NCBI GenBank assembly: GCA_964187785.1
Contig: OZ076409.1
Coordinates: forward strand, 26,414,001-26,478,000
DNA length: 64,000 nt
Source: Amphiscolops sp. MND2022
Taxonomy: Eukaryota
Reading direction: 5' to 3'
Shown here: positions 12,956-58,100 of the stretch, piece after piece
How the letters are laid out: each line of letters opens with the position of its first letter
How positions within the stretch are numbered: the first letter of the stretch is position 1
Translations under genes and position numbers: made by a program
Notes under the pieces: model-generated
Databases searched by the model: none
Told to the model about the DNA's origin: nothing
Seen by the model: the letters and a program-made list of their open reading frames with translations, nothing else

Positions 12956-13259
12956 CTATGCAACACCCCCACCTTCAACAATGTGCATTTTTTATACAGT
13001 TGAGGTGCTTTTTAATGTGCGAGGAAACAAACCAGGAATGGTCTGAGTCGACGCACGTTTAAGTGCGAAGTCTTTCAAATGAACGCAGGGACGCTTTTCG
13101 AAAAATTCTCGAAAATTGCACGATGTCAAAAATATTCAAATGAGGGACACACCATATCTAAGGCTCAAAAATCCAAAAAAGTCTCATATTACTGGAACTC
13201 TGACCCTCGAGCAATACGTAGGACGCAAATTATGTGAAATTTTGGGGAAAAATCGATAA

Positions 13260-26970: not shown

Positions 26971-27461
26971 CCGAAAACTTGGATTTGCAGTGTTCAGTGT
27001 GCCAATGACGTTATTTGCTGCCTTCAATTTTAAAAATAACTCGACTTGAAACTTCTAATAAAATTACATTTTCGTATCATGAAAATCGAAGTTCGAGTAA
27101 GATACTGTTTGGGCGTAATGAGCGTTATGTTTTTACTTCAAAACTGGTTGTGCTCAAGCAATCTAGTCGCAGTGTTTCCACCGCCCGCACTTCTCAACAA
27201 AAGAGTTTCACAGTGATTGCAAAAATTCGGTCTACATTAGAAGGCTTGTAGTACAACACTGGCGGTGCTGTGGTCTGAACAACTAGAATATGATCACAGT
27301 TAACGGATATTTCTTACAATCCTAAGAAGGTTATAACGTGTGAGTCGTCCTTTGCTACATGAGATGTTATGAAAGCAGTGTCTTTGTTTCAAGGTAACTT
27401 TATCGATCAATTTATGTTGTATATTTTTGGTAAAGTTTATAGCAAGAGAAGAATCAAAAGT

Positions 27462-34832: not shown

Positions 34833-35830
34833 CCGAAAACTTGGATTTGCAGTGTTCAGTGTGCCAATGACGTTATTTGCTGCCTTCAATTTTAAAAATA
34901 ACTCGACTTGAAACTTCTAATAAAATTACATTTTCGTATCATGAAAATCGAAGTTCGAGTAAGATACTGTTTGGGCGTAATGAGCGTTATGTTTTTACTT
35001 CAAAACTGGTTGTGCTCAAGCAATCTAGTCGCAGTGTTTCCACCGCCCGCACTTCTCAACAAAAGAGTTTCACAGTGATTGCAAAAATTCGGTCTACATT
35101 AGAAGGCTTGTAGTACAACACTGGCGGTGCTGTGGTCTGAACAACTAGAATATGATCACAGTTAACGGATATTTCTTACAATCCTAAGAAGGTTATAACG
35201 TGTGAGTCGTCCTTTGCTACATGAGATGTTATGAAAGCAGTGTCTTTGTTTCAAGGTAACTTTATCGATTAATTTATGTTGTATATTTTTGGTAAAGTTT
35301 ATAGCAAGAGAAGAATCAAAAGTGGTTAAATTGGTAGTGAATACAAGTTCGCCATTAGAAGAGTCAGCCGGAGTGTATGATAATAAGGGTGTTTCAAATT
35401 TTACTAAACACGATGATATTTCGAATGACCGTGACGTACTTTGAATATTTTTCGAAAACATGCATTACAGATGTTCTTGGAAATGAGCAAACTATTGTAA
35501 AGAACTGGCTTCAGCTGACGCTTAAGTTACCGCCGATTTTTCAAACGGCTGCAGTGTAACGTCACACAAAGTGTTGCAAGCGAACAAGGAGAACAAAAAT
35601 TCCGAATTGGAAGACCATCGGACTGGAGAGTACCAAACATCGTTGAAAGATTTTTTCCAACCAACCAAGTTCATTATTCACCGGCCAGACAATATACAAA
35701 TCTTGACGTTTTCGCAAGAAGAGATGTGAAAAAGGGTATTCCGATGAACTTAGCTGGGTTGTTGGCTGATATTCAAACATCTGAAGAGTTGCCAGCGCAT
35801 GCTCATGTATCTGTGTTCCAGCGAAAAAAT

Positions 35831-35851
35831 CATTACAAGACACAACTTTCA
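35831..35851 (+). repeat. Left TIR CATTACAAGACACAACTTTCA
   Basis: Exact reverse complement of 55174-55194. Confidence 0.97.
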
Positions 35852-36723
35852 GAGTGCGCGTAAATATACGTGTCTAAAATGCCTAAGTTTTCCTTATAAG
35901 CCAATATGCATTGAAGTATTGGTATTACTGATACATTTTTCAGTTGTTAATACATTACAAATGTATTCAGTTTCCTTAGATTTGATAATTATCAGATTCC
36001 TTATAATTCGTATACAAATGCCTCAAAATGTTTCCCCCCACGTTATAAGTAATCCTAGTACTCAAAACAAGTAATGTTGATACTTTGTATTATAAATCCT
36101 AATACGCTTAAAACTTGTTGAAAATAGGCTTCCTTATACAACTTGTGAGTATTCTTAGATTTCCTGATTTGAATTATAGTATCCATTGCAATATTATTCT
36201 GGTATTATTACAGCCAATGACATATACTGAATCAAATCTCTGTTGATATCTTATTCAATAAAGTGCAAATCCTGAACATTTCTGTATTTGAACCATTTAT
36301 TTGGGCGAATCGGCTGATATCTCATTCAATAAACTGCAAACCTTGAAGAAATCGTATTGTAAATGCCAGGGAATTGGAAATCTTAAACAATTTCGAATTT
36401 GAACAAGGCCATTGCCATGAACATCAATTTTCTCGGCGAGAGTTGGGATCTTCTCAAATCTTGATAAATCAAAGTTACTTCTTATTGGTGTTGATGATTT
36501 TAAATTCTATTTAAATTTAAATATTTGAATACAATTTAAATTCTAGAGCCATGGTATCAAAGAGGTCCCTGATTCAATTGAACAATCCTAGACAACTGAA
36601 AAGACCAAAGAACAAAGACAAAAGATTTTTTAACAAGTGAGCAAAGACAACAGATTTCAACAATAATCAAAATACAACAAAAGTTCAATGTTTTTCATCC
36701 AACAGTTGTGTCTTTTCGTTCAA

Positions 36724-39441
36724 TCAGTTGAACATTTTCCATGCTGCAGGATCGCCATAGTCAAACAGAACCTGGGTGAAAGGGGGAAGGTCTCTGAGTG
36801 CAACCAGTGCCACGTTTCTAGGCTTTTGAGGGAGTTTTCTGCAAACTACTTCCCCCAAGCGGGCTGTGCACTGCTTATTCCTGAGCCTTGAGTGATTGCA
36901 TAGTCTTCCAAGGCACAAATTTCGGGGATGGTGAGGACAGTCCTCATTGGATGCATCGACAAGACGCCTAATGTCTGTTGAAACTTCAATTATATAGGAC
37001 ATGTCACGGCCTGTTCTTGCAGCGTACGAGGCTGCATCCTTTTCGTCAACGAGACAACCATGATAGTCGCAAATGACATCGCCCTTTTTAAACGGCTTCA
37101 GTGTCATCACGCCACGACCCATGTCAGGATATGTGACACAGGTGATCCCGTCCCACGTCTGTGTGTCCTCACGGTGTAAAAAGTCGTATTGCCAACCCTC
37201 GTTGTTTGAGACACTGCTCTTGTACTCCAAGTTCGAATTGAAGGGTGCACCTCGAGGTTTTTGGGCGCTTTTTCCTTCCCGGTAGTCCAATAGAGTTTTA
37301 TGTAGCTTGGATTTGATTTTCCCGTCTTGCCATGACCCAACCTTGCACGTGTTCCACCCTTGTCGGAATGCATGGTCAAAGAAATTGGCATAGTCCGTTT
37401 CGGGATTTGCTTTGATGCGAAACTCATCGGCAAAGGCTTCAACCTGCGTGGAGAAGCGTTCAGTCCTTAGCGTCTGCAATCGTTTAGTGACAAGGTTTGT
37501 CAAATCCTCGAAGTTGACAGCTCTTCCAATTGAATTGTACAACAGATTGGAGACATGCTGCACTGACGGAAAGAGTTCATCCGGCTTGTAAGTTGAAGGT
37601 GTTTTCAGCCTGACGATACGTTTGAGGGCGAAATTCTCATCTCTGCAGTTGTGCCTCAGCTGTAATAAGCAAGAAATGAACAAATTAGACGTAGAGAAAA
37701 TAGATCAAAATTATATTATGTTTTGTTATCTTCCAAGTGTCACCAAATTCCTTAAACAAATATTCAAAGACCCTAAATGTTGCGTGAAAGAGTTTTGGTG
37801 AAAATGGTAGAATAATAGTTTTCGAACACAGAGGAACGATGTTCGAAACTGCCACGAAACGTAAACTATTCCATCATTTTGAAATTTAGTCTAAAATTTC
37901 TCTAAAAACAATAAACAATCCAAACAAATTCCAAAAACAATTTTTTGGCTATTTCATATGTCCCTTTCATATTGCATGAATTCTTAGACTCACTTTGACC
38001 ATCTCTTTCTTTGACTTATCTCGGAAGTTGATAATGGTGTTTCCGGTAGAATTGAAGAAGAAAGGCTCTGTCCAAACCAGCTTCTCACTTCCCTGAAATC
38101 GTGTTTGCATCTGAGGTACTCCAATCTTTGGTTTGAAATTCGGACGTACGTCTGAGTAATAGACTTGCAGGCCCCTTCCCACTATCCAAGAGATTGTGTG
38201 CGATCTGTAAAACGAATTTTGTGACTAGGAAACTAATATTTAGGGAAGTATTTTGACGCTGCTTATTTTTTTGAACTAACTGTTTTCACTGAAGTATTCC
38301 AAGACATTTTTCACGTAAACACTTTTTTTTTCACAGAAATGTTCCATGCAACTAATTTCGAACAATTTTCCACCCACCTGAAACCACCAGGGGTCCTCGT
38401 GTTCGCGCAGGTTAAGGTCACTGTCCCTCGAGTATCCGCCTTGGCTTGAAGTTCCGGGATTGTCTGCGCAAACAAATTCACTGTGAAGGTTTCTAGTTCA
38501 GCTGTTGAACATCTTGGTTCTGCGAACTCCATCAGGTAAACAATTATCAAATTGTGTAACGTCTTCCTGTCAGTGAAGGAGAGGCGAGATGAAAACTCGA
38601 ACTGTTCCACTAAATCTCCCATGAGATCTTCGCATGCATCGGCTGGAAACGCTCGATTCTGGACATAAGCAACATTGATGCTCCTAACGAAACTCTCTGC
38701 ATTGACTTTTTGTCGTTTCGACGCACGTGCTAACTCGTCGTTTTCTTCCTCATTCTGGCACGAATTTTTTCGTTTCCTCCGAACTTCGGAAAGTACTTGT
38801 TGAACCGGATTGCTCTCTGGAGCAGGTTGGAACCGGAATCGAGTTGAAGTGATGGCGTTCATTGTCAGCTCACTCGGCGTTGCAATAAAGTCACCTATCA
38901 TTGAATCGGTCAGCTGAGGAAGAGATGTACTTGGGTTGAGTGGCGTCGAAGTTGGAAGAATGAACTGGTAATCGAAAGAACCATTTACGGCCTGTGTATT
39001 AGCCCGAGGAGTAGCAGGCGGCGTTGGGAGAATTTCAGTCACCCCTCTCAGCAAGTGAGCAGAAGTGCTGAAAGCGGGAGTCTGAGAGAAGATAGGTTGA
39101 GATAAAGATTGTGGAAGCACCAACGATGTTAATTGAGGATCTCCATTCGCAGAAGCCTGTTCCTCTGCAGTTTTTGCAAAATTTGAGTCGACGGAGCTCA
39201 ATTTTTTCAATGCTGGTAATTGAGTCTCTCCATTCTCAGAAGCCAGTTCTTCCGCGGTTTTAGCAAAATTTGACTCGGTGGTGCTCATGATATTCGTTGA
39301 TGGTAAGTGAGAATCTACAACTTCAGGAGCCAGTATTTCTGCGTTTTCAGCGAAATTAGACTCAAGGGTGCTTATCATATTCGTTGATTGAACACAAGGA
39401 ACGAAGTTCTCAAGTTGCAGAACAGGAGTTTGTTGGCTCAT
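36724..39441 (-). CDS. SET-domain lysine methyltransferase (PR-Set7/SETD8-like), 3 exons, ~736 aa
   Basis: Exons 39441-38378, 38204-37994 and 37659-36724 join in frame through GT-AG sites (phases 2, 0). SET motifs MGRGVMTLKPFKKGDVICDYHG, LGRLCNHS, LVALRDL, VLFDYG; no post-SET cysteines. Confidence 0.9.
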
Positions 39442-39916
39442 GTCGGGATGTAGAGTTTTTTATCTCGAAGCAGCAGTTTTGAAATGCAAGTGTTCGACAG
39501 TTAACTGGAGATTGGAATGATATTTACAAGATTATCACTCAAAAAAACTAGTAGGCTCAATTCACACGTAATTGGCTCTAATAGCGCCTGAATTTGAGTC
39601 GACTCTTGATTTGCGTTGCAAGAGTGTTTGATAGAATGCTGAAGATTGGTGTGATAATTACAAGGATTATAACTCTCAATTACTGGTCGGCTCATTTTAC
39701 ACGCAATCGGCTGTAATCACGCCTGAAATTGAGTCGACTCTTGATTGATTACAACTACGCATACATATTACTTTAGTTGATTACAGAACGTTTTTAAACT
39801 GATCTGCTGACTTTTTTAGGCTGACTAAAAAAAACATTTATTCGTGGGGATGAAATAATTGAGGAATTTCAATTTTTGAGTTTTGAAAGTGTCAATTTGG
39901 GTTCCTTTAACAGGGG

Positions 39917-40861
39917 GACTAATTATGTGTCCATCGATTTTCTCAAATAGTAATCGAGACTAATATGTGCATCGACTCTCTTAAACAGTAGTCGAGACTT
40001 ATGTGTGCATCGATTTCCTTAAACAGTATTGCAGACTAATGAGTGCATCGAATTTCTTAAACAGTATTAAAACTAATGTGTGCATCGGTTTCCTTAAATA
40101 GCAATCGAGACTAATATGTGCATCGACTCTCCTAAACCGTAATCGAGACTAATATGTGCATCGACTTCCTTAAACAGTAATCGAGACTAATGTGGGCATC
40201 GACTTTCTTAAACAGTATTAAGACTTATGTGTGCATCGACTTTCTTAAACAGTCTTAAGACTTATGTGTGCATCGACTTTCCTAAACAGTCGTAAGACTT
40301 ATGTGTGCATCGACTTTCGTAAACAGTATTAAGACTAATGTGTGCATCGACTTTCCTAAACAGTATTGAAGACTAATATGTGCATCGACTCTCTTAAATA
40401 GTAATCGAGACAAATGTGTGCATCGACTTTCTCAAACAGTATTAAGACTAATGTGTGCATCGACTTTCTTAATCAGTATTGAAGACTAATGTGTGCATCG
40501 ACTTTCTTAAACAGTCTTAAGACAAATGTGTGCATCGACTTTCCTAAACAGTCATAAGACTTTTGTGTGCATCGACTTTCTTAAACAGTATTAGGACTAA
40601 TGTGTGCGCATCGACATTCTTAATCAGTATTGGAGACTAATGTGTGCATTGACATTCTTAAACAGTATTAGGACTAATTTGTGCATCGACATTCTTAAAC
40701 AGTATTAAGACTAATGTGTCCATCGACTTTCCTAAATAGGAATCGAGACTAATATGTGCATCGACTCTCTTAAACAGTAATCGAGACTAATGTGTGCATT
40801 GAATTACTTAAACGGTATTCGATAGTAATGTGTGCATCGATTTCCTTAAACAGTATTCCAG
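39917..40861 (+). repeat. 39/40-bp tandem array A (GACTAATGTGTGCATCGACTTTCTTAAACAGTATT(A/G)(A/G))
   Basis: About 24 contiguous degenerate units, no unique spacers. Confidence 0.95.
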
Positions 40862-41814
40862 ATGATTGTGTAAAGTGTAGAACAGGCATCAATTTTGTTC
40901 AACAGTACTCGACAGAACACAATTGATCCTACCAAAGTTTGCAATGCGCATTCAACTGTCATTGAAAATACCACAAGTAACGACAGTGCTGAAATTTGAT
41001 TGGTTGAAATGCTGAGATCTTCTGACCGCTAAGAAAAGGCATCGACTATTTTGTAGAAATGGCTTCAATTTACTTGAACTTTTTTCAAAATTGAGCGTGC
41101 GTCTGATTTATTTTACATTGACATTTCATTGTTTCAAATTCAGCTGCCTTCATTCATTAATTTCAAAAATTTAAACAAGCATCATCTCACTTTACTTCGC
41201 ACATCAACTTGTTTAACCTGTTGATCTGTTACTTCTCGGCTTTAGCTAACTAATCCTGTATTCTGTATCAATGTATTCTGTATGCTGTATCCTGTATCCT
41301 AACTAATAATGCCTGTATGCGATGGTAAGTTAAACAACTCTGCAATTTTGCTATATATGTATAGGGCTTTGTAAAAGATGACCTATCAAGCAATAGTCTA
41401 CGATGAAAAGATGGTACATCTTTTTACGATGAATTGAGTTATATATTACAAGGAAATATAGTGCAACGAACTGAGTTATGTCTATTTCACGCCTAGAGAT
41501 AATCAGAGTCTATTTACCAAATAGGCGTATAACTAACTAATCTGCCTTTTCAGCACAAATTTGCATGTAATTATTGCTTATCGCAAAAGCTTGGATCCTT
41601 CTATTTTTTCTGTTGTAACGAGAAACCTTGAATAATATAACAATTTTTCGACAATGTAAATAAACCCTTTTAACAGAATTTCTATTTTTTGGTTCAATCT
41701 TATTCAGTCTTGTATCTTTATATCCACAATTTTTATACTACAATTATTTCATGAAGTTTTGGATCTTTTCTGTTAGTTACAACCCCACCCACAGATTCAA
41801 TACCCCAATAACTG

Positions 41815-42610
41815 GCCAAAAAAGTTTTATACGGGAGAGCACAAAAATCGAAGCCAAAATAATGTTCCGTTGAAGCCTCCGGCATGTGTACATGTCAATT
41901 TTTGGAATCCTTTGATGAATTTAGAACCTCCCATTTCAGATTTAATAAAAAATTTTTCCCAGTGTTTCAGTTTTTCTCTATGACGTACATCAATATCTGG
42001 CCAAAAAAAAGCTTTTACGGAAAAGCACAAAAATCGAAGACAAAATAAAGTTCTGTGAAAGTCTCCTGCATGTGTGCATGTCAATTTTTTGAATCCCTAG
42101 ATGTATTTAGAACCTCCCATTTCAGATTTAATAAAAAATTTTCCCAGTGTTTCAGTTTTTCTCCATGACGTACATTAATAAGTGGCCAAAACAGTTTTTT
42201 ACGGAAAAGCACAAAAATCGAAGACAAAATAAAGTTCTGTGAAAGTCTCCTGCATGTGTGCATGTCAATTTTTTGAATCCCTAGATGTATTTAGAACCTC
42301 CCATTTCAGATTTAATAAAAAATTCTCCCAGTGTTTCAGTTTTTCTCTATGACGTACATCAATAAGTGGCCAAAACAGTTTTTTACGGAAAAGCACAAAA
42401 ATCGAAGACAAAATAAAGTTCTGTGAAAGTCTCCTGCATGTGTGCATGTCAATTTTTTGAATCCCTAGATGTATTTAGAACCTCCCATTTCAAATTAAAT
42501 TAAAAAACAAAAATCGAAGCCAAAATTTGTTCATTGAAACCTCCTGCATGTGTACTTGTCATTGTTTTGAACACCCAATCTGGTGTAATTTGGACCTCCC
42601 ATTTTGCATC
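41815..42610 (+). repeat. 184-bp tandem repeat (~4.5 units) upstream of the JmjC gene
   Basis: Period of 184 (e.g. ORFs at 42081 and 42265). Diverged inverted copies at ~44230-44560. Confidence 0.9.
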
Positions 42611-42748
42611 CAATAAATTTTTATTCTTTAGTTTTAGTCTCTTGTGGGGAAACAAATCCATTATTGGCAATTATTCAATTTTTTTTCAACGACTTCTTGA
42701 TGGGCCGCATGTGAGGTATTTTATGAATCGATTGTTGATGCTTTTAGA

Positions 42749-45700
42749 TTGTGGAGAGAGTTTCAAAAACGCCAAGACCCTGAAGCAGCACAGACGCCGG
42801 GGTAATGTGTCACATTGCGTTTTGAAAGCAGCTGAAGATTTGATAACGAAAAACAAATGGAAAACATGCATGTTTTGTGGCATGAAAGGCACTGCCAAGA
42901 GGGACAAAGATGGTGAAATGAAATTTTTCGAGTTTACCTGTCCCGCGGCAACTGCTCAGCATGCTTTAAACTACGACTGCAAATGGCAGCGAAAGCAAAT
43001 CGAAGATTCGAATCCACAGGCGATTATGAACAAGACGTACAAGGATTTTCAGGAAAGGGATTTCAAAGACCCAGACTCTTATGCTGATGAGTACTTGGCA
43101 GCAACTCGAGAAGTTGTCCAAGCGCTGACGCATGAAAAACAAGTTTTCAAATACACTCTAATGAGGAAAGAGGCATTCCTTCCTCTGAATGTGGACCACT
43201 ACAAAAAAGGACATAAAGCAGGTGCCAGCTGGGCTGACTATGGAAGCAACGTAGCCGCTCGGTCGTCCACGGGTAAAACGAATTATCAAATTACAAGAGA
43301 CTACACTGGCTCTCATTCTGTAAAGGAGCTGGATCCAACTCCACCGTTAGGAAGAATGTCTGGCACTCGTTAGTGTTGAATAAGTTTTTCAGTTCAATTC
43401 CCGACTGCATGTGAAATTAAATAGGACTTTCACTGCTTTTCTTGTTAGTAGTGTCTTCAGCGGCAACAACGACCACGAGAATGCCAAAGCCCGGAAGAAG
43501 GAGAGCAATATCTTGTTAGTACTTCGATGGTTATCTGATGTTCAACTTATTAAGATGTTCAATGCGTTTTTTACGTAATTGTTTTCAGGTTCGTTAACGA
43601 CCACGGGAACAACAACGCCTCGCAAAAGAAGAGCAACTTCTTGTTAGTAATTCGATGCTTCAGTGATGTGGTTTTGATTAGGTTTTAGATGCTTTTCTTG
43701 ACAATAGTGTTTTCAGCGCTGATAACGACCATGAGAATGCCGAAGCTTCGAAAGAGAAGAGCAACCTCTTGTTAGTATTTCGAAGTTTCACTGATGATGA
43801 TTTGATTAGTGTTTTCAACGTTTTGCTTGATTTATGTTTTTTCAGCCTCAAAAACAACAACGAAACTAACATCGCCCCAGAAGAGAAAGGCAACATTGTG
43901 TTAGTTTTTCGAAATTCGAAAGAAGTTGTATTGATTATGATTTAATGCTTTTCTTGAAAATGTTTTTAGCCCCGATAACGACAACAAGTATGACGACTAC
44001 AAAAATGACAAGAACGGCCGCGAATCCCAGCATATGCGGTCCCTTTGGGGAAGCTTCAACAAAAGATAATTGCGGTAAACCAAAACTTTTATTGCTAATG
44101 CTTTGAAAGAGTCTTTTGGGAAAACGTTTTCAAAAAACAAAAAAATGAAACTTCAAAAAATGTTGTAACAATAAGAGTACCAATGAATAGAACAACTCTA
44201 AGTTCAGTTAAGCAAAAAATAGCTTGATTACTTGCAGGAGACTTCAAATGATAATAAGTTTAGCTTGTCCGTTTTTTTTTAGATTTTACTGAACAATTAT
44301 TGGAATACGGCATGAAAGAGAAACAGAAAAACCTGAAATTTTTTTCCTTCAAATTGAATTGGGAGGTTCTAAATTCTTTTCCGGATTTGAAAAGAAGAGC
44401 TTGTTTATTTGCAAGAGACTTCAAATGAACATAAGATTGGTTTCAATTTTTGTGCTTGTTCGCTTTTTTTTAGTTTCCAGAACAAGTTTTGGCGTACAGC
44501 ATGAACAAAAATCGAGAAACCTTTTTACCTTTAATTTTGAATTTTTACATTTAGTTTGAAATGGGATTTATTATTCAGCTTCAAAATATTAGGGATATAA
44601 AATAAAGTTATTAGATTTGTTAGTTTTTTGAAGTCTTATTGATGTTGAATTGAATAAGATTTTTACTGCCTTTCTTAACAAAATTGTTTTCAGCCCCGCT
44701 AACGGCCACTAATCTTCTTCGTACTGCTTCTCCTCCTCCTACACCTGGTCCTTCTCGTATGGATTCTCCGCCTCCAACACCTGGTCCTTCTCGTATGGCG
44801 TCTCCTCCTCCTCCTCCTCCTCCTCCTACACCTGGTGCTTCTTCTTCTATGGCGTCTCCCCCTCCTACACCTGCTCCGTCTCGTTTGGACTCTCTTTTTC
44901 GTACACCTGGTCCTCCTCTTGCTCCGTCTTCTCGTCCTACACTCTTTCCTCCTCTACCTCCCCTCTTTCAGAAGGCTAAAGCAAGGAAGCGGAGTCCACG
45001 AAAATCCCTGACTCCAAAGAAACGTACGTATTATTTTTCCACTTTATATCCGGGGAAATGTACTAGGTATTTTAAATATTTCCTAAAATTTTTGTTTTGG
45101 AAATGATAGTCTGTGTTGACATTTGTTTTTGTGCTAAGGTGCCGTTCCTCCTACCGGCGGGCCCATTACTCCTGCAAAAAAGCGGAATCCAAGAAAATCG
45201 CCGACCCCGAGACGAACTCTTCCAACACAATCTTCTTGCAGCTATGATCGTACGTGGTTTTTTAAAAAATCTATAAACATTTAAGGACATTTTATAGGCA
45301 ATTATTTTTAAAAAATGTAAGCCTTTATTTTCCTAAACAACTGAATATTAAACATTGGCAATTGAAAAGTTGATTTCTTGTAGTGTCCTATCTTTTGATT
45401 TCGTGTGTTTTCAGCGATCAATTCAATTGACCCTGATGGCTACCCAACGTTTAGCGACGCCACAGAACTGCGCCAACTGGTGGAATGGTTGCCGATGGGC
45501 AAAGAGGGCATAGACTACTTGCAATACAAAGCCGAATTCTTTGATCAAAACTCAGCGCTTTTGAAAACGGCTCTAAAAGGAATTGTGAAGAAGCCGATGT
45601 TGATAGTTGATGCTCTCAGACTGAAGGGCTTCTCACACAAATTTGCAGCTGGAGACCTCAAACTTACCGATGAACGTTTATTCAGAGCAGTATTAGCGAA

Positions 45701-47089
45701 AGAAGATCCAAAAATGACAGTAAACTGCAGTTGGCTAAAGGGAGTAAGAAACTTTTGATTATTTTCTCAAATGAATGCTTAACCAACGTAGCGGTTGATT
45801 AGAAATCCTGAAAAATGACACATCTAAAGAAACTTGATACATTTATCATGTATAAATAGAGAAAAATGTATCAGTAATACACATTCTTCAAAGCACTTTG
45901 GCCTATAAGAAAACCTTATACACTTTAGACACTGAGCGTGAATTATCACTGTCAACAAGTTTCCAAGTCAATGTAGGATGAAATATCATCGGCAATAATT
46001 CTCCAGCCTTTTTTGTTAGAGTTATATTTCACTATTACATCTTTGTTAATTTTTCAGCACGAGTTCGAAATTGAGACCATGCCTCTGAAAACCTATTTCC
46101 TCAAGTTCGATCTCTCCAGACCAATGAACATCATTGATCTGAACGCAACAACAAGCAACAGTCTGCAGTTCGAGCCTGCGAACTTTGTGAAAGAAATCTC
46201 CTTGGGACACAAATTGCAAATGAGACTCCCAAGAGATAAGAGCAGCGTCTGGAAGCTAAACTACGTCATCCTCAGTCAAGCTGGGTGTTTCGCTGACTGG
46301 CACGTGGACTTCAGTGGAACCTCTGTGTTCTACGTCCTCCTTGCCGGAGAAAAAGAGTTCGTTTTTGTGAACGAGACCGGCAAGCTTGGTGAAGGACTGG
46401 CCAGCTTTCAGTCATCTAGGACAACGACATCCGTTAATAGGTTCTTCGGAGGCAGAAGAGATCTTCAGGCCTACAGAATCACTTTGAAAGCCGGACAGGG
46501 CGTTTTAATCCCAGCAGGAACGCTCCACTTCGTGTCCACAATAGCGAACAGTGTGGCTGTAGGGACAAACTTCTTGACTTTTCAGGAATACCGTTAGTAT
46601 CTCATGTTGGCAAAAGTTTGAATAAAATTTTGAAAAAGGTGGCTCCAAACTTATGATCATAAGACAGTATTGATTATTTTTCTTTTATTACTTAATGTTC
46701 AATGAATATTTAAAAAAGTTTTCTTTCCAGCTGCAGCACTCAATGAATTCATGAAGGAGAGGATCAGGAAGGTCAGATATTGCAAATGTTTTCCCCATTT
46801 TTGTCACCTGTCTGCTGCCATGGTATCTGAGTTTGTCCGTCGATGCAAACAAGCGAAATTTAACAAGCAAGCATCCCCACACCCCATTAACGAAGAAGGA
46901 GAAATATTTTGGCAAATTTGGACTATACATGAAGGCTATTCCTCAATGCTACCCAATTCCATGCGTAACGGGATCCGAAGATCGTTCCGTGCAAGTTTGA
47001 GTGAAGTCGCGAAATACAATACAGATATACCGCAGTACCCCAAACTCCCGGAGATAATCGAATACATGAACACCATGTGTGGCTTCTAA
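42749..47089 (+). CDS. JmjC histone-demethylase-like protein (KDM7/PHF8/KDM2-like) with Cys/His-rich N-terminus and basic/Pro-rich linker, ~860 aa; 5' end not determined
   Basis: In-phase exons ~42749-43368, 43461-43514, 43589-43642, 43717-43770, 43846-43899, 43970-44074, 44694-45023, 45139-45249, 45415-45719, 46058-46592, 46731-47089. JmjC motifs NYVILSQAGCFADWHVDFSGTSVFY..GEK..LIPAGTLHFVST..AVGTNFL (HxD..H intact), followed by FPHF. Confidence 0.9.
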
Positions 47090-47266
47090 ACCAGGGGTTT
47101 ATTTGAAAAAGAAGAAATAGTTCTTTGTTTTTGTTGAAACATATACCAGTAAGATTTAGATTTCATTAGAACTTGTTACTTTGCGACCTTTGCACAGGTT
47201 AATTCTGTTTGAAAACAATCTTTGTTTTTGTTGAAATTTGTACCAGTAAGATTTAAGGTTGAACTC

Positions 47267-48633
47267 CATCGACTTTTTTAAAAAGTATTCGAGACTAATA
47301 TGTGCATCGACTCTCTTAAACAGTAATCGAGACTAATATGTGCATCGACTTTCTTAACCACTATTCGAGACTAATGTGTCCATCGACTTTCTTAAACAGT
47401 CTTAAGATTAATGTGTGCATCGAGTTTCTTAAACAGTGTTGGAGACTAATGAGTGCATCGACTTTCTTAAACAGTATTAGGACTAATGTGTCCATCGACT
47501 TTCTTAAATAGTAATCGAGACTAATATGTGCATCGACTCTCCTAAACAGTAATCGAGACTAATGTGTGCATCGACTTTCTTAAACAGTATTGGAGACTAA
47601 TGAGTGCATCGACTTTCTTAAACAGTAGTAGGACTAATATGTGCATCGACTTTCTTAAACAGTAATCGAGACTAATGTGTGCATCGACTTTCTTAAACAG
47701 TATTGGAGACTAATGAGTGCATCGACTTTCTTAAACAGTAGTAGGACTAATATGTGCATCGACTTTCTTAAACAGTAATCGAGACTAATGTGTGCATCGA
47801 CTTTCTTAAACAGTATTGGAGACTAATGAGTGCATCGGCTTTCTTAACCACTATTCGAGACTAATGTGTCCATCGACTTTCTTAAACAGTCTTAAGATTA
47901 ATGTGTGCATCGAGTTTCTTAAACAGTGTTGGAGACTAATGAGTGCATCGACTTTCTTAAACAGTATTAGGACTAATGTGTCCATCGACTTTCTTAAATA
48001 GGAATCGAGACTAATATGTGCATCGACTCTCCTAAACAGTAATCGAGACTAATGTGTGCATCGACTTTCTTAAACAGTATTGGAGACTAATGAGTGCATC
48101 GACTTTCTTAAACAGTAGTAGGACTAATATGTGCATCGACTTTCTTAAACAGTATTGGAGACTAATGAGTGCATCGGCTTTCTTAACCACTATTCGAGAC
48201 TAATGTGTCCATCGACTTTCTTAAACAGTCTTAAGATTAATGTGTGCATCGAGTTTCTTAAACAGTGTTGGAGACTAATGAGTGCATCGACTTTCTTAAA
48301 CAGTATTAGGACTAATGTGTCCATCGACTTTCTTAAATAGGAATCGAGACTAATATGTGCATCGACTCTCCTAAACAGTAATCGAGACTAATGTGTGCAT
48401 CGACTTTCTTAAACAGTATTGGAGACTAATGAGTGCATCGACTTACTTAAACAGTAAGAGGACTAATATGTGCATCGACTTTCTTAAACAGTAATCGAGA
48501 CTAATGTGTGCATCGACTTTCTTAAACAGTATTAGGACTAATGTGTCCATCGACTTTCTTAAATAGTAATCGAGACTAATATGTGCATCGACTCTCCTAA
48601 ACAGTAATCGAGACTAATGTGTGCATCGACTTT
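47267..48633 (+). repeat. 39/40-bp tandem array B (same family and orientation as array A) with a 339-bp higher-order repeat
   Basis: About 34 units; identical ORFs at 47816 and 48155 show the 339-bp higher-order duplication. Confidence 0.95.
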
Positions 48634-48860
48634 GCCTCTGAAAACATATTTCCTGTGAGATTTCTTGTACCAGTAAGATTTAGATTTAATTAGAACTTGT
48701 TGCTTTGAGCCCTTTGCACCAGTCACTTCTGTTTGAAAACAATCTTTTGTGTGCAGATTTTTTTTCGATTATTTAAGACTAGGGTACATTATAGAAATAC
48801 AACGTCACAAAGGGAACAACATTTAAAACCAGCATTAATAACGAAATTAGGATGTAAAGT

Positions 48861-51800
48861 TCAAAACGATGACGTCTCATCTTTTTTTGTATGTCTTTTG
48901 CCAAATATCTTCTCGATGTCTTGTGTGAGGTTTGAGTAGTTTTGCTTCCGAAATTCTTTGATAAGGACAAACGGGCCTTTGGTAACTCCTTCAATTATTT
49001 CTTTGGCCTCGCATTGTCGTTTGAACAAGGGCTTCATGTCACGAATGGGCACTATTGGTATGTCATTTCCTGGTTTTATTTCATAGTTAGCTGGATCAAG
49101 CAAAGTACGTTTGTTCAAGCAATCAACAACAAACTTTACGTTCAAAAAAACAACTCCCGATTGTACATAACATCTTAACTTTAAAGCTCTTTCCTTTTTT
49201 TCGACAATTTTTTCACGTTTCTCCATTGGTCGGCCAACCCCTGGTTCTCCAGTTGCTATTCTAAGATCTGTTTCATTTTGTACTAAAACATAGCAAAACG
49301 GTAGATGGGAGTGCTTTTCAGTCAGTGTTTTCAGGGCATCTTGGGTCATTACCAGGCCGCCACATTCGAGAATCATCTTGTTCACTTGAACCTGCGTTAG
49401 GTTAGCTTTTCGAAAATCTCCAAATACGGTGAAACGTAGGCCTAGAAAAATCGAATCTTTCTCGCAAGGTGTATCGATTTGAATAGTCCTCGCTTTAATT
49501 GTTTTCCTACATATCCATAGGTAATCTATGTGGAAAGTTGGAATTGGCCGGAAGATACTGCGGAGCTGCATCATACACTCTTCAAAAGCGATTTGTTGCT
49601 TGCTGTGGATATAACATCGAAAAAACGACAAAACCAGATCTTGAAGCATGGGATCAACGTGAAGTAGTTTACCTCCCCCGCGCATTGTCTTTTGATGGTA
49701 GAATTGATGTGCTCGATGATTCGAGTGCTCCATTGCTTCGGTTAAGTGGTCCCAAGGTGACCGAATACAACCCGATTCGACCAATTTGGGAACAAGAAGG
49801 ATTTTCACTTTATATGGCGTAACTTCGCCAAAGAAAGCCATTGAGATATGATAATATGTCTCCGCCCAGAAATTGTATTCATCAATGAGTTTTTGAGGGA
49901 AACCGTTTTTCGAACCTCTGAGAATAATGTTCATATTGTTCAAGGATTGCCGCCATAGCTCTGCGGCATCGTACTTTGACATCAAATACCGTTTTGTTTT
50001 GTCTTCAAGTAATACTTCATGCTTGAAAAGTGTTTTGTGACACAGTTTAAGAGTTTCTAGGTTAGCCGGATGGCCCACTAAGTACTCGTTTTCTTTGAAG
50101 ACATTATCAAAAAGGTTGCTTTGTATTCCACTGTCGCTTCCAAATTCGTCCCGATGAGCAATCGCGAGCAGGGCTTCTTTTCCACTTAAAGACACAGAAT
50201 TGCAACTAGTTGGTCCGTTTTTGCTTGTATTGATATTAAATCTGAACCTGGGCTCCTTCACTCCTCTCTCGGTTAAATTGGATTCGAATAGGTTCAAAAC
50301 GGTGTAAATTGTTTTCCCGCGGGTCTCAATTAGTAGATTGCAAAACTTTTGCAAGTCATTCTCAACCATTCTTGTGATACCATGGCAAGTGTCAACGCAA
50401 ACTCTTCGGATGTCGTCAAGATAAACCAGGGAAGTTGACGGTAACACCTGCCAGGGTATATTCAGCGTTGTCCGTTTCTTCGTTTTGGGATCAACTGTCG
50501 TTGACAAAAAAGGTTGGAAAACTTTCTTTCCATCTTTAACGTCAAAACCAATTGACGACTTTTTGCCAACATAGATTGCGCATTTGGAGTCGTCTTCAAC
50601 GTTGTCACCATTAACCAATCGCATTACAAATGGCTGATCGCCGGACAACGTCAGTTTCACTTTGTAGTCCTCGACCAGCGTCTTTGTCTGCTGGTAAAGC
50701 CATCCACTCTTTTGAACTCCAACTTGTGTTGGGCCGAGGTTTTGTTCCATTGCAAATCTGCTATCATGACCTGCAAACATGTGCAAAACAGTCTCGTATC
50801 TGCATCTTTGGTACAAAAATATTTGATATAGCATGTTTTTGAAGAAAAGTTCTAGCGAATTGCTTATATTAATGCAAGTATTTACTTCTTTATTGAGGCT
50901 GGTAAACCAATGAGATTAATGTGAGAAAAGTTTCTTGATATTTTTTAAAAGATTTTCCGGGACAAAATTTGAGAAAGTTACAAACAGCTGATTTCGAGCT
51001 AATTCGGGACTTATTTCCGTTTTTCCAATTTTTTACCGTTTAATGCACAATTTCCTTCGCAAGTGTATGGTCAATTAACTCACATAATTCAAACGAATCT
51101 ATAGATCTTTTTCATATTCAAAATATATCAACAGTTTTCGAATCAGTTTAGTTGAATATAAAGCATCGACTGCGGTTCTACAGTTCGTTTGAAAAACAAA
51201 AAGGACTCGTTTAAAACAACAAATGTTGTTCACAACTGTATTCACATATGTAAAAACTTGAGATAGACAATAGATTTATCCACTACATTAAAAGCGCTTG
51301 AAAACATTCCATTATAGTTTGTTAATATTGCTACGCAACTCGTTTTCAGTTTAACATCTTTGCTTAGTTTAAACCATTGATTTTCTTGAACACTTTAGTT
51401 GAATAGAAAGTATTCATTTTTCCTAACAACGTTCAATCACTTTTGCACAAACCTTTGAAGGAAGCAAATGTGAAACATGCATCTGAAGATTGTGGACTGA
51501 TTTTCCCTTTTGTATCAAGAAATCGGAAAACCATTCTCGTACACTCCGAGTTCCCAATTTCAACCCCGTCACCCCAAAGATCAACTGCAACACCTTCTAA
51601 CGATTCAATTCCCGTCAGAAGGTAGTGAGAGGTTCTCACTAAGGTAATCAAATCGGCTCTAAAACCTGAGGTCTTCTCCGGTTGGAATATGTTGTAATAA
51701 AAGCAATGTAGAGGATTTGACAATTTGTTTAATGTTGTAACACTGGGAACTAACTGATCATTTCTTATGCCCTGTAAGTCAAATAAAGTCTTGAGATAAC

Positions 51801-52497
51801 CGACCAAATCAACAACATTACCAGTTTTCTTGATCAAATACAAATGCTCCATGAATTGATGGGTGTATCTCGAAGGGAACAGTGCTTTCATGATTTGTTT
51901 CAAATAATTAGGCCGTTGTACAAGTTTTTTTTCGGTAGCAATATAGGCTTTATTTTTCAAATGTTGAATCAAACTCCCAATTTCCAAATCTCGATTGTTC
52001 ATTTGATTCAACACATCACTCCAGAAATGATTGCTACTAGTACAAAAAGCGGGCTCGTGTAAATCCGAATTTTTTGCTATTGGTGGTTCTCGATTCTCCA
52101 GTTTCCGTAAGAATTTGCTAATTTCCGAGTTGTTTTCTACTGGCTTTCCGTCTGGAATGAATTCTGGGCCGAAGAAGTGTGCAACAAAGCGTCGGCGACG
52201 ATCTGTCCACGATAGGCCAGTGAATCCTTTAAAGACAAGCAAGAGTGCAATTTTGAATACCACAGCATTGTATTTTGCTCGTCTACCTGTCTCATTGCGC
52301 GTTGCACTGATGAAAACATCGGTGAATTGAACGTTTGTGCCATTCAAGAGACAAGTGATTGCTGGTTTCACTTTCCTTTGCTTGTCATTTATTGTTTCTT
52401 CTGCTAAGTAGTCGAATAACGATAAATCAACATACAGGCCTTCTGGCAAATTGATTAGGTGTTTTTTCAGAATTATCTCCTCATTGCAATAACTCAT
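48861..52497 (-). CDS. RAG1/Transib/Chapaev-like DDE transposase with C-terminal BRCT domain, 2 exons, ~984 aa
   Basis: Exons 52497-51453 and 50770-48861 join in phase 1 (FKG|HDSRF). Motif order DLWGDG, LSGDQPF, CVDTCHG, VTPY..LVP, TEAMEHSNH parallels RAG1 D600, D708, DALH, TNY..HVP and E962. C-terminal IFLGLRFTVFG..MILECGGLV..KFVVDCL..LLDPANY is the BRCT pattern. Confidence 0.8.
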
Positions 52498-52839
52498 TGT
52501 AATACCGGGACCGCTTTTAAGGAATAGGATTTCGAAATAAATGGGAAAACGTTTACCAAAATTAGCAACATTCACATTTGAGGCTTACTACATTCTTATA
52601 CGCTTATCCGCGTTAACGCTTTCATCGAAAAGAGAAACAGGTGCCGTAGATTTACATTTGGTGTCAACGGACTCACATTGCAACATCATCAAAAATCTGA
52701 GTCTAACACCAGAACTGAATTGAGGCAAATTATGACTTGCGAAGACGCAATTTAAAAGCATTCAGAAACCGTAAATTTCATTTTCCACTCTTCGCTTTAC
52801 CTCGAATCAAATTGGTCAATCAATTTTGAACAATCAACA

Positions 52840-54421
52840 ATGCTTTTTGCCAATGTTTTCTTCCAGACTAAGCCAGTCGTTCAAGCTTTGGATCCTGACA
52901 CTCAAATCTGGGAGGAGGCTAAAATCGAAGGTTTTGAAGGCACCAATCATGTTCGTGTTAATTTTACGCGCTGGGGAAAAAACAAGGACCCTGTTCGGGT
53001 TCTTTTTTGTGACCCCCAAGTTCATCTTGAAAATTGGCCAGTCAGGAAAGCTCTTGAAGAAGTTCTATTTCCCAGACGACACAATATTGATTACAAACTG
53101 GATTACACTAAGGAAAAATTCGCAAAAGGCGATATAGTATATTTTGTTGGGTCGACTGCGCCATCGGTTGGTGATATTATGGAGCCTTGGGAGATGAAAC
53201 AAATGATCCAAGAAGCATCAGTTTTGAAATCTGGAACTGTGCTAATCAATGATAGGTTTAGAAAAACTTTGCTGATTTGCTCCAATGTGGAGAAGTTTTA
53301 TATTTCGTACAACCAGTTGAGGAACTCTGACTGGCAAAAAGAAGGAATAGCTGACGAAGAAGAAATGATACCAATCCCAGTTGCCAAAAAATTGAAAGTT
53401 GAAGTGAAAGCTGTAGTGAAAGAGAAACAGTCGAAGATCAACATTGGAGACATTTTGCGGGCATTGTGCGGATCTGACGAAACCGTTAGCCTGACACTTG
53501 TTCCCACTACGAACGGAATACTAGCAGCAGGATCACGTGTTGTAATAGACTTGTCACAGACGGGGGTTGTACGAAAGCTTTTTTTTGACCGCAGGGAGGC
53601 GCACGCGATGGCAGAAGTAACTTTAGACGGGAGTAAGAGATACATTGGACTGCCAGCCACAGAAGTTCGACTGTCAGTAGACCCCAATCAATCACTTAAG
53701 AAGCAACAGGAAATCAATTATATGAAATCCCCAGAACTCACAGTGAGGAACCCTAACTTGCACCCAGTTGATGAAGTTTTCACAGTGTTTTCCGCCATCA
53801 AACGGGAACTTTTCCTCTCTTACGACACAATCAGCCACACAGAAATAATATACAGTCCTGTGCCATTTTACATTAGGCAAGTTTTGGGCTGTGAATCGTC
53901 AAGAGATTCGGTAAGCATATGCTAATTGTCAAAGTAGTTAATAGCATCATTGACAACAAGTCTTTGAAAACACTGTGGAGTGTAATTATTGAACTTCCCA
54001 GGGCATTGAAAATCTTGAACAATTTTTTAATCCAGCGTTGCAACTCCAAGGGCTTTCATAACTTTCAGCAATTTTGTATCTGAAGACTATACATGAAACC
54101 TTCATCAAGCGTTTGTTTTATAATTGTATTTCATTAGTTTTCTTCCATTGGCAGAAATTCACTATCAACGAGGAGCGGGGATCGCATGGAAACAAAGTGT
54201 TTGATGAAATTCTCGGTAAGAAATGGGATCTCCTTGAAACCAGGCCGGATGCTGAGAAGTTTTTCAATCATGTCCTCTTGGGGGTGCGGTTCAAAGTAAA
54301 AACCAGTCTCGCTTTTGAAGCCCTCAAAATTCAAGTTCAAGGACACAGAGGAAACTACGAGGACTATGAAAACTATCGCGAGTTAATCTCGAAAAACACA
54401 AAAACCTCCTTGGCAGCTTGA
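52840..54421 (+). CDS. Accessory protein, ~445 aa, 2 exons, with N-terminal Tudor/chromo-barrel(MBT)-like domain
   Basis: Exons 52840-53910 and 54155-54421 join in phase 0 (TCG|GTAAGC, GCAG|AAA). N-terminus VQALDPDTQIWEEAKIEGFEGTNHVRVNFTRW resembles Royal-family EAxD..WYxAxI....vxvhFxxW. The gene call is firmer than the domain call. Confidence 0.7.
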
Positions 54422-55173
54422 TAACTTGTGCATTTTCAATTATTCGTTTCTGTTTTTTGATGTAAATTTTGGTTACTTTGATATTCGTTAGATCATATTA
54501 ACATTTACTTTTACCAATAAATAAATTCGAGGAATTAGATAGCTCTTGATTCGATTTTTGTCGTTGAATTATTTCAACTACTTCTGAGGAAAAATGCTAA
54601 GCTGGTAGAGAGTGAAATTTACAATGAGCAAGAGGAGGCATCGGAATTCTTAAACAATTTTACAGGACAAAGTGTATAACTTGTGATTTAAAAAACTTCT
54701 AATTGTGTATCAAAATTACTTTATTAAAATTACTGTGAATCAGCGAATTGCTGCAAGCGACTGCAAACGCATTTTCGTCAAAACCACAATAACATGCGTT
54801 TTTATTAGGATTACTAAAGATTAGTATAAGAAATCCTATTTGTGTATAATGAATCCTTTTTGTGTATAAGAAATACTGTTTGTCTATATGTTCTCCGCGG
54901 AAATAGTATAACTTATACTTGACACTAGTATAAGAAATCCTTATAATGGGGATATTTATGGATATTTATTAGAAATCCTAATAAGTCGCATTAGGTTTCC
55001 TGATAGTAGGTATATAAAATCCTCCGTTTTCACCAAATATTAAAAATCCTTAAATTTTCGAAAAAGTTAAAACATACAAATAGGTAATAATAATACAAAA
55101 AATAATACATTAGGGGCCAGTGAAAATTCCCTTGTGGAGCATTTAAGGATATTTAATAAACTTTTGAGGCTCG

Positions 55174-55194
55174 TGAAAGTTGTGTCTTGTAATG
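55174..55194 (-). repeat. Right TIR
   Basis: TGAAAGTTGTGTCTTGTAATG followed by the AT TSD. Confidence 0.97.
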
Positions 55195-55196
55195 AT

Positions 55197-58100
55197 GAAC
55201 AATTGATGGTAGGGCCTTTGTCTTTCATTAACCGTTCTCGCTGGCCAAACTCATTTCACACTATAAATCAAGAAGTGATGTCACTCAGGTCTCTTCGGAC
55301 AAGGAAGGAGGGTGAAGAAATAGCTGAAGTATGGGCTGGAGTATTTTGGCAATTACAACGAAGAATGTTTGTGTCCACATATAGAACACCATTCAAGGGT
55401 GAAGATCTTTTGGAGTGTGTTGGCGATGCTCCGACCTTATACGGTCGCAAAATTGCCCGGAGGCTGTGGTCGAGAGAGGAGCTCAGTAACTCCATTATGT
55501 CCCCGGGGAAAGATTTGGAGTTCAGGGAGTATCCCCGCAATCCCATGACTCCAACGCGAAAGCTCTCTTCCATGGTTAATAGTTTCTTGGCGAGAATTGT
55601 TTTCCGGAAGTAAAAAGTTCTGCATGTATCGTTGTAATTTGATGTTTTAACCATAGGTCGATGCATTGTTTGAAAATATGCACGCTATAGATGCTTATTC
55701 GAAAGTTTTTGTTTCGTTGACATTTTTTGTTTGCTCAGAGCGCGTTGAAGACAAGTTCCTTTCCGTTCCGGGATGCTAGATCAAGTCCCGCAACAGCGTC
55801 GACCATTTGGGAACGGAGCTGAAAAACCATTCTAAGAATGTGAAGAAACAATCGATGCCACCGAGCACTGCGACAACAAGCTCAGCTATGATGTCTCCTG
55901 CGGAAGATGATGTCTCCTGAGTCGGTTAAACTGGTAGTGAACACATGTGCGCCATTGGAAGAGTCCACCGGAGTGTATGTTCATATGAGTGTTTTAAATT
56001 TTACTAAACACGATGATATTTCGAATGACCGTGACGTACTTTGAATATTTTTCGAAAACGTGCATTACAGATGTTCTTGGAAATGAGCAAAACTATTGTA
56101 AAGAACTGGCTTTAGCTGACGCTTAAGTTACCGCAGAACTATTGAACGGCTGCAGTGTAACGTCACACAAAGAGTTGCAAGCGAACAAGGACAACAAAAA
56201 TTCCGAATTGGAAGACCATCTGACTGAAGAGTACCAAATATCGTTGAAAGATTTTTTCCAACCGATCAAGTTCATTATTGACCGGCCAGACGTTATACAT
56301 GTCTTGACGTTTTCGCAAGAAGAGATGTGGAAAAAGGTATCGGAATGAACTTAGCTGGGTTGTTGGCTAATATTCCAACATCTGAAGAGTTGCCAGCGGA
56401 TGCTCATGTATCTCTGTTCCAGCGAAAAAAAAGAACAATTGATGGTAGGGCCTTTGTCTTTCGTTGACCATTCTCGCTGGCCAAACTCATTTCACACTAT
56501 AATTCAAGAAGTGATGTCACTCAGGTCTCTTCGGACAAGGACGGAGGGTGAAAAAATAACTGAAGTATGGGCTGGAATATTTTGGCAATTACAACGAAGA
56601 ATGTTTGTGTCCACATATAGAACACCATTCAAAGGTGAAGATCTTTTGGAGTGTGTTGGCGATGCTCCGACCTTATACGGTCGCAAAATTGCCCGGAGGC
56701 TCTGGTCGAGAGAGGAGCTCAGTAACTCCATTATGTCCCCGGGGAAAAATTTGGAGTTCAGGGAGTATCCCCGCAGTCCCATGACTCCAACGCGGAAGCT
56801 CTCTTCCATGGTTAATAGTTTCATGGCGAGAATTGATTTGCGGAAGTAAAAAGTTCTGCATGTATCGTTGTAATTTGATGTTTTAACCTTAGGTCGATGC
56901 ATTGTTTGAAAATATGCACGCTATAGATGCTTGTTCGAAAGTTTTTGTTTCGTTGATAATTTTTGTTTGCTCAGAGCGCGTTGAACACAAGTTCCTTTCC
57001 GTTCCGGGATGCTAGATCAAGTCCCGCAACAGCGTCGATCATTTGGGAACGGAGCTGAAAAACCAATCTAAGAAACAATCGATGCCACCGAGCATTGCGA
57101 CAACAAGCTCGGCTATGATGTCTCCTGCGGAAGATGATGTCTCCTGAGTCGGTTAAACTGGTAGTGAACACATGTGCGCTATTGGAAGAGTCCACCGGAG
57201 TGTATGTTCATATGAGTGTTTCATATTTTATTAAACATGATGATATTTTGAATGAACGTGACGTACTTTGAATATTTTTTGAAAACATGCATTACAGATG
57301 TTTTTGAAATGAGCAAAAATTATTGTAAAGGACTGGCTTTAGCTGACGCTTAAGTTACCGCAGAACTATTGAACGGCTGCAGTGTAACGTCACACAAAGA
57401 GTTGCAAGCGAACAAGGACAACAAAAATTCCGAATTGGAAGACCATCTGACTGAAGAGTACCAAATATCGTTGAAAGATTTTTTCCAACCGATCAAGTTC
57501 ATTATTGACCGGCCAGACGTTATACAAGTCTTGACGTTTTCGCATGAAGAGATGTGGAAAAAGGTACCGGAATGAACTTAGCTGGGTTGTTGGCTAATAT
57601 TCCAACATCTGAAGAGTTGTCAGTGGATGCTCATGTATCTGTGTTCCAGCGAAAAAATGAACAATTGATGGTAGGGCCTTTGTCTTTCATTAACCGTTCT
57701 CGCTGGCCAAACTCATTTCACACTATAAATCAAGAAGTGATGTCACTCAGGTCTCTTCGGACAAGGACGGAGGGTGAAAAAATAACTGAAGTATGGGCTG
57801 GAGTATTTTGGCAATTACAACGAAGAATGTTTGTGTCCACATATAGAACACCATTCAAAGGTGAAGATCTTTTGGAGTGTGTTGGCGATGCTCCGACCTT
57901 ATACGGTCGCAAAATTGCCCGGAGGCTCTGGTCGAGAGAGGAGCTCAGTAACTCCATCATGTCCCCGGGGAAAATTTGGAGTTCAGGGAGTATCCCCGCA
58001 GTCCCATGACTCCAACGCGGAAGCTCTCTTCCATGGTTAATAGTTTCATGGCGAGAATTGATTTCCGGAAGTAAAAAGTTCTGCATGTATCGTTGTAATT

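Follow-up and report, generated by a model that had tools for sequence, protein, structure and literature searches.

A BRCT domain at the C-terminus of a transposase with a predicted RAG1-like fold in a family of large CATTAC-ended transposons

Background

The CMCT clade of transposons unites EnSpm/CACTA, Mirage, Chapaev, Transib, Plavaka and ESTA as well as Lanisha, and its features, in the available parts of the account by Kojima (2025, PMC12730594), are 5'-CA..TG-3' ends, target-site duplications of 2-5 bp and, in all lineages, the motifs C(2)C and H(3-4)H. PlavakaB is described in the same parts as having CATCA..TGATG ends and duplications of 2-3 bp (PMC12730594). For Transib and RAGL elements, the accessible portions of two papers give duplications of 5 bp and four zinc ligands, ZnC2 and ZnH2 (PMC10629977, PMC7204232). 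The C-terminal tail of RAG1L is presented in the available text as a DNA-binding clamp that is critical for cleavage (PMC10629977), and breaks of the RAG type are repaired by NHEJ, according to the accessible part of another paper (PMC8533500). Transposons carrying chromatin enzymes are also on record, including HarbingerS and oomycete MuDR elements with SET and fungal TET+ elements (available text of PMC12730594), and Chondrus En/Spm elements reach 16-20 kb (available text of PMC6431247). The term BRCT has no occurrence in the available text of Kojima 2025 (PMC12730594), and no transposase-BRCT fusion was found in the searchable literature, a scope that leaves Repbase Reports, most subscription journals and the Lanisha supplements outside.

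Most of what is said about how cut-and-paste enzymes pass their breaks on to host repair is deduced from genetics, and a built-in, selected BRCT domain in a transposase of RAG1 fold would offer a single small target for deletion, pull-down or structure determination. BRCT is a module typical of DNA-repair proteins, and its textbook modes of action are the binding of phospho-peptides, as in BRCA1 and MDC1, and of 5'-phosphate ends, as in RFC1. In BRCA1, MDC1 and RFC1 the phosphate pocket is made by a Ser/Thr-Gly at beta-1, and phospho-binding BRCTs have a Lys at the start of helix 2. End-joining polymerases and RAP1 have single BRCTs that lack the pocket and make contact with Ku or with ligase complexes. 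RAG uses host HMGB1, and giant CMC elements with JmjC and SET are known as Vesper.

We analysed a window of 64,000 nucleotides from Amphiscolops sp. MND2022 (contig OZ076409.1, forward strand, positions 26,414,001 to 26,478,000; all coordinates below are those of the window). It holds a transposon whose transposase ends in what is, almost beyond doubt, a genuine, single BRCT domain; this near-certainty applies to what the domain is and to what the element is, taken together.

Results and discussion

The transposon, its copies and its relatives

The whole transposon is 19,364 bp long (35831..55194), limits that are reproduced exactly by the matches to three other copies (99.7-99.8%). Comparison of its ends shows perfect terminal inverted repeats of 21 bp (CATTAC..GTAATG), the left one at 35831..35851 on the plus strand and the right one at 55174..55194 on the minus strand. 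The target-site duplication is AT, found on the left at 35829..35830 (plus strand) and as the same dinucleotide at 55195-55196, with an empty target at 27967/27968.

Copies were paired from the best 30 left-end and the best 30 right-end loci, of which 27 and 29 could be parsed. This gave 15 end pairs, 14 spanning 19,359-20,179 bp and one spanning 1,672 bp; the target duplication is 2 bp in 15/15 pairs, with varying sequence, and 3 bp in none. The element is recently amplified by cut-and-paste. It has copies that appear intact and are 99.7% identical, whose activity could be tested; a domesticated single-copy gene is ruled out by the 14 dispersed full-length copies. The shortest pair (G000:C5:19096807, loci L038/L068) is a deletion derivative of 1,672 bp that retains both ends and a 2-bp duplication, and non-autonomous families are suggested by numerous other loci that match, at 92-99%, in the ends only.

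Searching the genome with the BRCT domain gave at least 150 matching places (150 scored of 620 candidates). Six groups with BRCTs 30-39% identical were sampled and two copies fetched per group; elements of 17.1-18.9 kb with CATTAC ends were found in 5/6 groups, and the duplication is 2 bp in 7/8 copies of these other families with both ends readable. Since Pfam has no model for this transposase, annotations are likely to miss or misname such elements, even though a single genome has at least 150 matching places. The loci L093-L128 (families F2-F7) represent at least four more lineages in the genome, with differing inverted repeats of 20-25 bp that all start with CATTAC. Gene order varies among them: in F3, F4 and F7 the SET gene is found upstream of the transposase. 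Some of them also lack the first intron. One F3 copy (L104) has a Gypsy-like LTR retrotransposon just past its right end, about 8 kb beyond the BRCT domain.

The surroundings of the window element are themselves repetitive. A 7.9-kb tandem segmental duplication (24212-35830 and 55195-59294) has the insertion in one copy and retains the empty site 27967/27968 in the other. A 1.23-kb tandem repeat, with units 90-96% identical, extends over 26457-32068 and 55195-64000; the transposon sits in one unit, and the repeat bears SET-like fragments (Pfam SET E 3e-4 and 0.018). Inside the element, the segment 35870-35984 has an inverted 80% copy at 45819-45932, the subterminal left end thus being repeated in the JmjC gene region. 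An intact ORF of 475 aa lies outside the element (11547-12974, minus strand) and has no Pfam match at E <= 1.

The transposase gene and its catalytic core

The transposase gene (48861..52497, minus strand) is predicted to encode 984 aa in two exons. The frame of exon 2 comprises 684 codons (48861-50915, minus strand) and holds every motif quoted in the original prediction, and an upstream frame (51433-52584) bears the first catalytic motif, D-L-W-G-D-G. Because intronless relatives read unbroken from the upstream frame into exon 2, we placed a phase 1 GT-AG intron of 682 bp at 51452-50771 (minus strand). The same predicted intron occurs in three other copies, which encode 985 aa with 1-4 substitutions. 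By alignment, exon 1 (51453..52497, minus strand) supplies the N-terminal domain and the first catalytic residue, D310 (51570), and the catalytic part of exon 2 (49461..50770, minus strand) supplies D393 (50639), H478 (50384) and E696 (49730).

Across 73 aligned relatives, with each column scored only in the sequences that cover it, conservation of D310 is 36/47, while the other catalytic positions are kept as follows: D393 in 48/56, H478 in 57/61 and E696 in 64/67, and all misses but one are gaps. The motif H-x-x-E-x-x-E-x-S-N-H (49728-49750, minus strand; H690, E693, E696 and H700) is nearly invariant, so that conserved extra His residues adjoin the catalytic Glu although the family lacks the customary ligands for zinc.

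The transposase is predicted to fold like RAG1. We modelled the full-length relative P0013, which is 36% identical over exon 2 (42 sequences, pLDDT 84, pTM 0.74), and its model matches RAG1 (Z = 16.9, 396 residues aligned, rmsd 3.6; Foldseek E 7.2e-7) and BbRAG1L (Z = 16.8), followed by HzTransib (Z = 11.4, rmsd 8.0) and, with the same score, the P element (Z = 11.4), and then by ISCth4 (Z = 8.3) and Hermes (Z = 7.9). Alignment and predicted fold together place a D-D-E triad in an RNase H fold. Sequence identity to RAG1, RAG1L and Transib is 10-12%; RAG1 is absent from the matches of PDB profile searches, and a Pfam scan of 45 family proteins gave no transposase family match. The fold match lists contain no CACTA, Mirage, Chapaev or Plavaka structure, and hence the fold does not choose among these kin; to our knowledge, none of these transposases has a solved structure. 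The N-terminal domain (51900-52497, minus strand) is well folded in the P0013 model, and it draws many weak Bro-N/antirepressor rows (E > 0.1) from a viral fold library in which nothing was found at E <= 0.001; we treat these as no more than a lead on that domain.

Relationship to described transposons

The family resembles the CMCT clade in its ends, since CATTAC..GTAATG agrees with 5'-CA..TG-3', in its 2-bp duplication, which is within the range of the clade, and in its D-D-E triad with a His after the second D in a predicted RAG1-like fold. Ends and duplications are close to those of PlavakaB. The difference is in the zinc motifs: C(2)C is found in 1/47 family members, and in that one at the C-P-D site, while T-P-Y-K-x-K stands in place of H(3-4)H before the E, the 7/65 matches to the pattern all being at a W-x-H site. 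Judged by its sequence, the family thus seems to work like a CMCT or Transib element, yet it lacks the motifs of the CMCT clade.

RAG1, RAG1L (ProtoRAG) and Transib provide the best fold match of the family. However, the family is neither Transib nor RAGL, because those have 5-bp duplications and four zinc ligands, whereas here the duplication is 2 bp and the ZnC2/ZnH2 ligands are missing. It also differs in having BRCT in place of the CCGHC tail of RAG1L, and in its size of 17-20 kb with SET and JmjC genes. In the element ORFs scanned, short exons excepted, no Pfam match to kelch (RAG2L) was seen, and the convergent gene is JmjC. Like the chromatin-enzyme transposons, the family consists of large cut-and-paste elements that bring along genes for histone modification, but the available parts of the sources mention neither BRCT nor a transposase of this type (PMC12730594, PMC6431247).

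The family is possibly an unnamed lineage beside CMCT. Its predicted fold suggests that the RAG1/Transib architecture can work without a zinc site and with a 2-bp stagger, and these two properties are relevant to how the CMCT clade is defined and to where RAG came from. A bolder reading, which we consider rather doubtful, is that of an undescribed branch of RAG1-fold transposons at superfamily level in which the zinc site disappeared and BRCT was acquired, together with an HMG box in one clade; host end joining would then be recruited by the transposase itself, the HMG clade would bend its own DNA, and the SET and JmjC passengers would manage the chromatin of the element. If this were true, the transposase would do jobs for which RAG depends on host proteins.

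A single BRCT domain after the core

The original prediction had read a BRCT domain, with a basic insertion, into the C-terminus of the transposase. The segment on which it relied is present after TEAMEHSNH in the minus-strand ORF 48861-50915 (IFLGLRFTVFGD ... MILECGGLV ... YVLV ... FVVDCL ... DPANY), and the domain is delimited by Pfam, fold matches and ESM Atlas to residues 786-912 (49080..49460, minus strand). Its identity is supported by weak Pfam matches and by a predicted BRCT fold. In the last 213 residues of the window transposase, Pfam finds BRCT_2 (E 3.9e-5; 24.3 bits against a gathering cut-off of 27.3) and BRCT (E 1.1e-3), each with almost the full profile covered; the anticipated Pfam match was obtained, but both hits stay below the curated cut-offs. 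A gathering score for BRCT or BRCT_2 is reached by 3/30 relatives and E <= 0.1 by 16/30; P0096 also lies above the gathering score (E 1.2e-7).

Modelling of exon 2 with AlphaFold from an alignment of 31 sequences (pLDDT 73) bears out the fold. Residues 445-577 of the model match the BRCT of MDC1 (Z = 11.1, rmsd 2.1, 93 residues aligned) and that of XRCC1 (Z = 10.4), about 40 further BRCT structures also match, among them that of PARP1 on a nucleosome (7scy, Z = 9.0-9.2), and the four-stranded parallel sheet and three helices of BRCT are seen in the predicted models. The top ESM Atlas match for the segment is a BRCT_2 cluster (0.92). Foldseek with the exon 2 model returned nothing at E <= 0.001 and a PDB sequence search with exon 2 gave no match; the BRCT matches of PDB profile searches are weak (all E >= 0.04), and among those with E > 0.04 are BRCTs that lack the pocket, namely the second repeat of BARD1, ligase IV and RAP1.

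The fold is shared with single BRCTs (XRCC1, ligase IV, Pol lambda/mu, PARP1, RAP1 and RFC1) and with tandem ones (MDC1 and BRCA1) at Z = 7-11 over 80-100 residues; scores for the different BRCT classes lie no more than about 2 Z units apart and therefore give no pointer to the end-joining type. Also shared are the G-l-r-F-x-x-x-G and G-G motifs. Unlike known BRCTs, the family has two inserts, one conserved and one variable, lacks the pocket Ser/Thr, and has Tyr/Phe for the helix-3 Trp (56/58 sequences). The conserved, family-specific insert (49293..49346, minus strand) is defined by alignment and consists of a helix, as seen in the model, and H-S-x-x-P-x-C, with H835 kept in 38/64, S836 in 39, P839 in 41 and C841 in 43. 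The variable one is a loop of 21 aa (49188..49250, minus strand), and it is here that the prediction of a basic insertion fails: the loop has 7 K/R and 5 D/E in the window copy and a net charge of -2 in the nearest subfamily, it ranges over 0-72 aa in 64 aligned rows (the four zero-length rows being incomplete sequences), and its net charge is at least +3 in 13/64 rows and zero or less in 31. Such variation in length and charge rules it out as a functional motif and leaves a variable, near-neutral loop.

The tail behind the domain (residues 913-984; 48861..49079, minus strand) contains V-x-D-x-R-P-L...Q and a basic helix by alignment, and Q934 is kept in 56/60, K953 in 41/60 and R956 in 37/60. 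A sister clade has an HMG box behind BRCT: Pfam HMG_box was found in 3/8 hand-picked tails (P0187, P0071, P0061, P0185, P0186, P0068, P0070 and P0066; best E 1.1e-6), and these tails have PDB profile matches to SSRP1 and HMGB. The window's clade has no HMG box after BRCT. HMGB1 is named in PDB titles among the fold matches of P0013.

Age and selection of the fusion

Our first search gave 36 proteins. A profile search then found 587 with E <= 0.001, and the best 150 of these were used. From the 183 proteins collected, 86 fit the catalytic-E pattern and 64 have at least 200 residues beyond the E. The conservation in homologues on which the prediction depended was confirmed among these relatives that extend far enough: a BRCT HMM matches 61/64, or 37/40 outside its training alignment, and the three misses form one cluster (a match of P0058 with a broader HMM is circular, since cluster mates are in that model, and was left out of the counts). 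As the initial searches had BRCT in the query, we repeated the search with nothing but the core of a distantly related family member, and BRCT was found in 8/10 of its matches with an HMM built without them, the other two stopping before the catalytic E. BRCT is also present in 5/5 metagenome loci, and in a core tree of family members only, rooted at its midpoint, it occurs on either side of the root.

The dN/dS ratio of BRCT is 0.22-0.24 at dS 0.37-0.45, that of the core 0.13-0.22 and that of the tail after BRCT 0.20-0.33, with three diverged, non-independent subfamily copies as reference (a fourth, frameshifted copy was dropped). From the spread in relatives, the core-only search, the metagenome loci, the tree and dN/dS together, we infer that the fusion of BRCT and transposase is old and under purifying selection.

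A chance neighbour or read-through into a host gene is ruled out by the shared frame, the position inside the ends and the conservation, and a recent capture of BRCT by its presence across relatives 24-59% identical and in both main clades. No longer fused forms (1842-5000 aa) were found, which is weak evidence. The Atlas look-alike clusters (score 0.83) are eukaryotic and, among their few labelled members, mostly from Cnidaria or Rotifera; we regard them as a lead only.

Possible roles of the BRCT domain

We tentatively favour the view, though with somewhat less than even confidence, that BRCT is a phosphorylation-independent docking surface linking cut DNA to host end-joining proteins. The transposase would bind the 21-bp ends, cleave as RAG1 and Transib do, probably leaving hairpins on the flanks as the fold suggests, and insert with a 2-base stagger. 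BRCT would stay beside the ends, as it directly follows the catalytic core, and could contact a host repair factor like the pocket-less single BRCTs of end-joining polymerases and RAP1, whereupon donor breaks and insertion gaps would be sealed. Docking toward end joining is favoured because it is the usual role of pocket-less single BRCTs; the NHEJ repair of RAG-type breaks and the weak profile matches to pocket-less BRCTs speak in its favour too. It is counted against this role that RAG1, RAG1L and Transib work without BRCT and that two RAGL papers, in their available parts, do not mention the domain (PMC10629977, PMC7204232). A reader of phosphorylated host proteins (e.g. gamma-H2AX) or of 5'-phosphate DNA ends, the textbook kind of action that the original prediction implied, seems very improbable. 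The highest fold score does belong to MDC1, but it is tied with those of pocket-less BRCTs, and the domain is single, with no tandem pair. Moreover, the residue before the beta-1 Gly799, which aligns with the Thr of RFC1 G-L-I-F-V-I-T-G, is Ser/Thr in only 2/56 sequences and L/I/V in 42/56, which disfavours both kinds of phosphate reading and makes them unlikely on sequence grounds. The window copy has a Lys at 879, the column expected for helix 2, and this Lys is found at 879 in 6/58 family members and at 878 in 24/58, in a register taken from a weak alignment to Mdb1. As Lys is common one position off, a remnant anion site may exist at helix 2.

A close rival, possible in our view but less probable than docking to host proteins, is that BRCT, together with the basic helix, acts as a clamp on DNA in place of the CCGHC tail of RAG1L, either holding the transposon end or bending the flanking or target DNA. 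It is a close rival because BRCT is found at the position of the DNA-binding tail of RAG1L, with basic residues or an HMG box coming after it: the match of P0013 to RAG1 and BbRAG1L stops at residue 789-793 of P0013 and its BRCT spans about 835-1001, residues K953, R956 and R794 of the window transposase are conserved, and the sister clade has its HMG box behind BRCT. The PARP1 BRCT-nucleosome structure among the fold matches points the same way. However, the Thr-Gly pocket of the RFC1 type is missing, the excess of basic residues in the domain is small (20 K/R to 15 D/E), and the basic loop is not conserved. We think it unlikely, but less so than the reading of phosphates, that BRCT docks on the element's own proteins, whether by packing on the core (perhaps compensating for the lost zinc site), by dimerising the transposase, or by binding the product of the divergent ORF, SET or JmjC gene and bringing it to element DNA. 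The gain of BRCT and the loss of C(2)C and H(3-4)H are both family-wide, the H-S-x-x-P-x-C insert is conserved and family-specific, the pTM of the full-length P0013 model speaks for such packing, and the passenger set accompanies the transposase in 3/3 other families tested; against this, no partner gene lies beside the 5 metagenome loci, on contigs of only 2-6 kb.

Passenger genes

Two passengers encode putative histone-modifying enzymes, a cargo that may already be known from Vesper. The SET-domain gene (36727..39459, minus strand) is multi-exon, with the SET domain at 36727-37704 (Pfam SET E 5.7e-11) and its upstream exons predicted; the motifs GRGV, RLCNHS and LFDYG are present, and homologous ORFs occur in three other families. 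In the exons upstream of the SET domain (37970-39459, minus strand), T-E-P/L-F-F-x-N-S-x-G is kept in all families; we take this motif to resemble a domain derived from tyrosine recombinases, for which a Pfam scan of these exons gave no support. The JmjC gene (45399..47089, plus strand; Pfam JmjC E 2.1e-6) is likewise multi-exon, with predicted joins, and has the H-x-D...H triad (HVD at 46301 and TLHFV at 46520). An ORF with a weak C2H2 zinc finger (42504..43373, plus strand; Pfam zf-C2H2 E 0.024) is possibly the 5' part of this gene.

Repeat analysis shows an internal 38-bp tandem array at 39925..40862 and a second array of the 38-bp unit at 47267..48633, between the 3' ends of the JmjC gene and the transposase. 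A divergently transcribed ORF (52756..54418, plus strand) belongs to no Pfam family and has what we assume to be a Tudor-like look; it was found by tblastn from related families, with matches from three other families at E 4e-24 to 7e-16. The transposase, SET, JmjC and divergent ORFs are shared with the window element in all three families tested.
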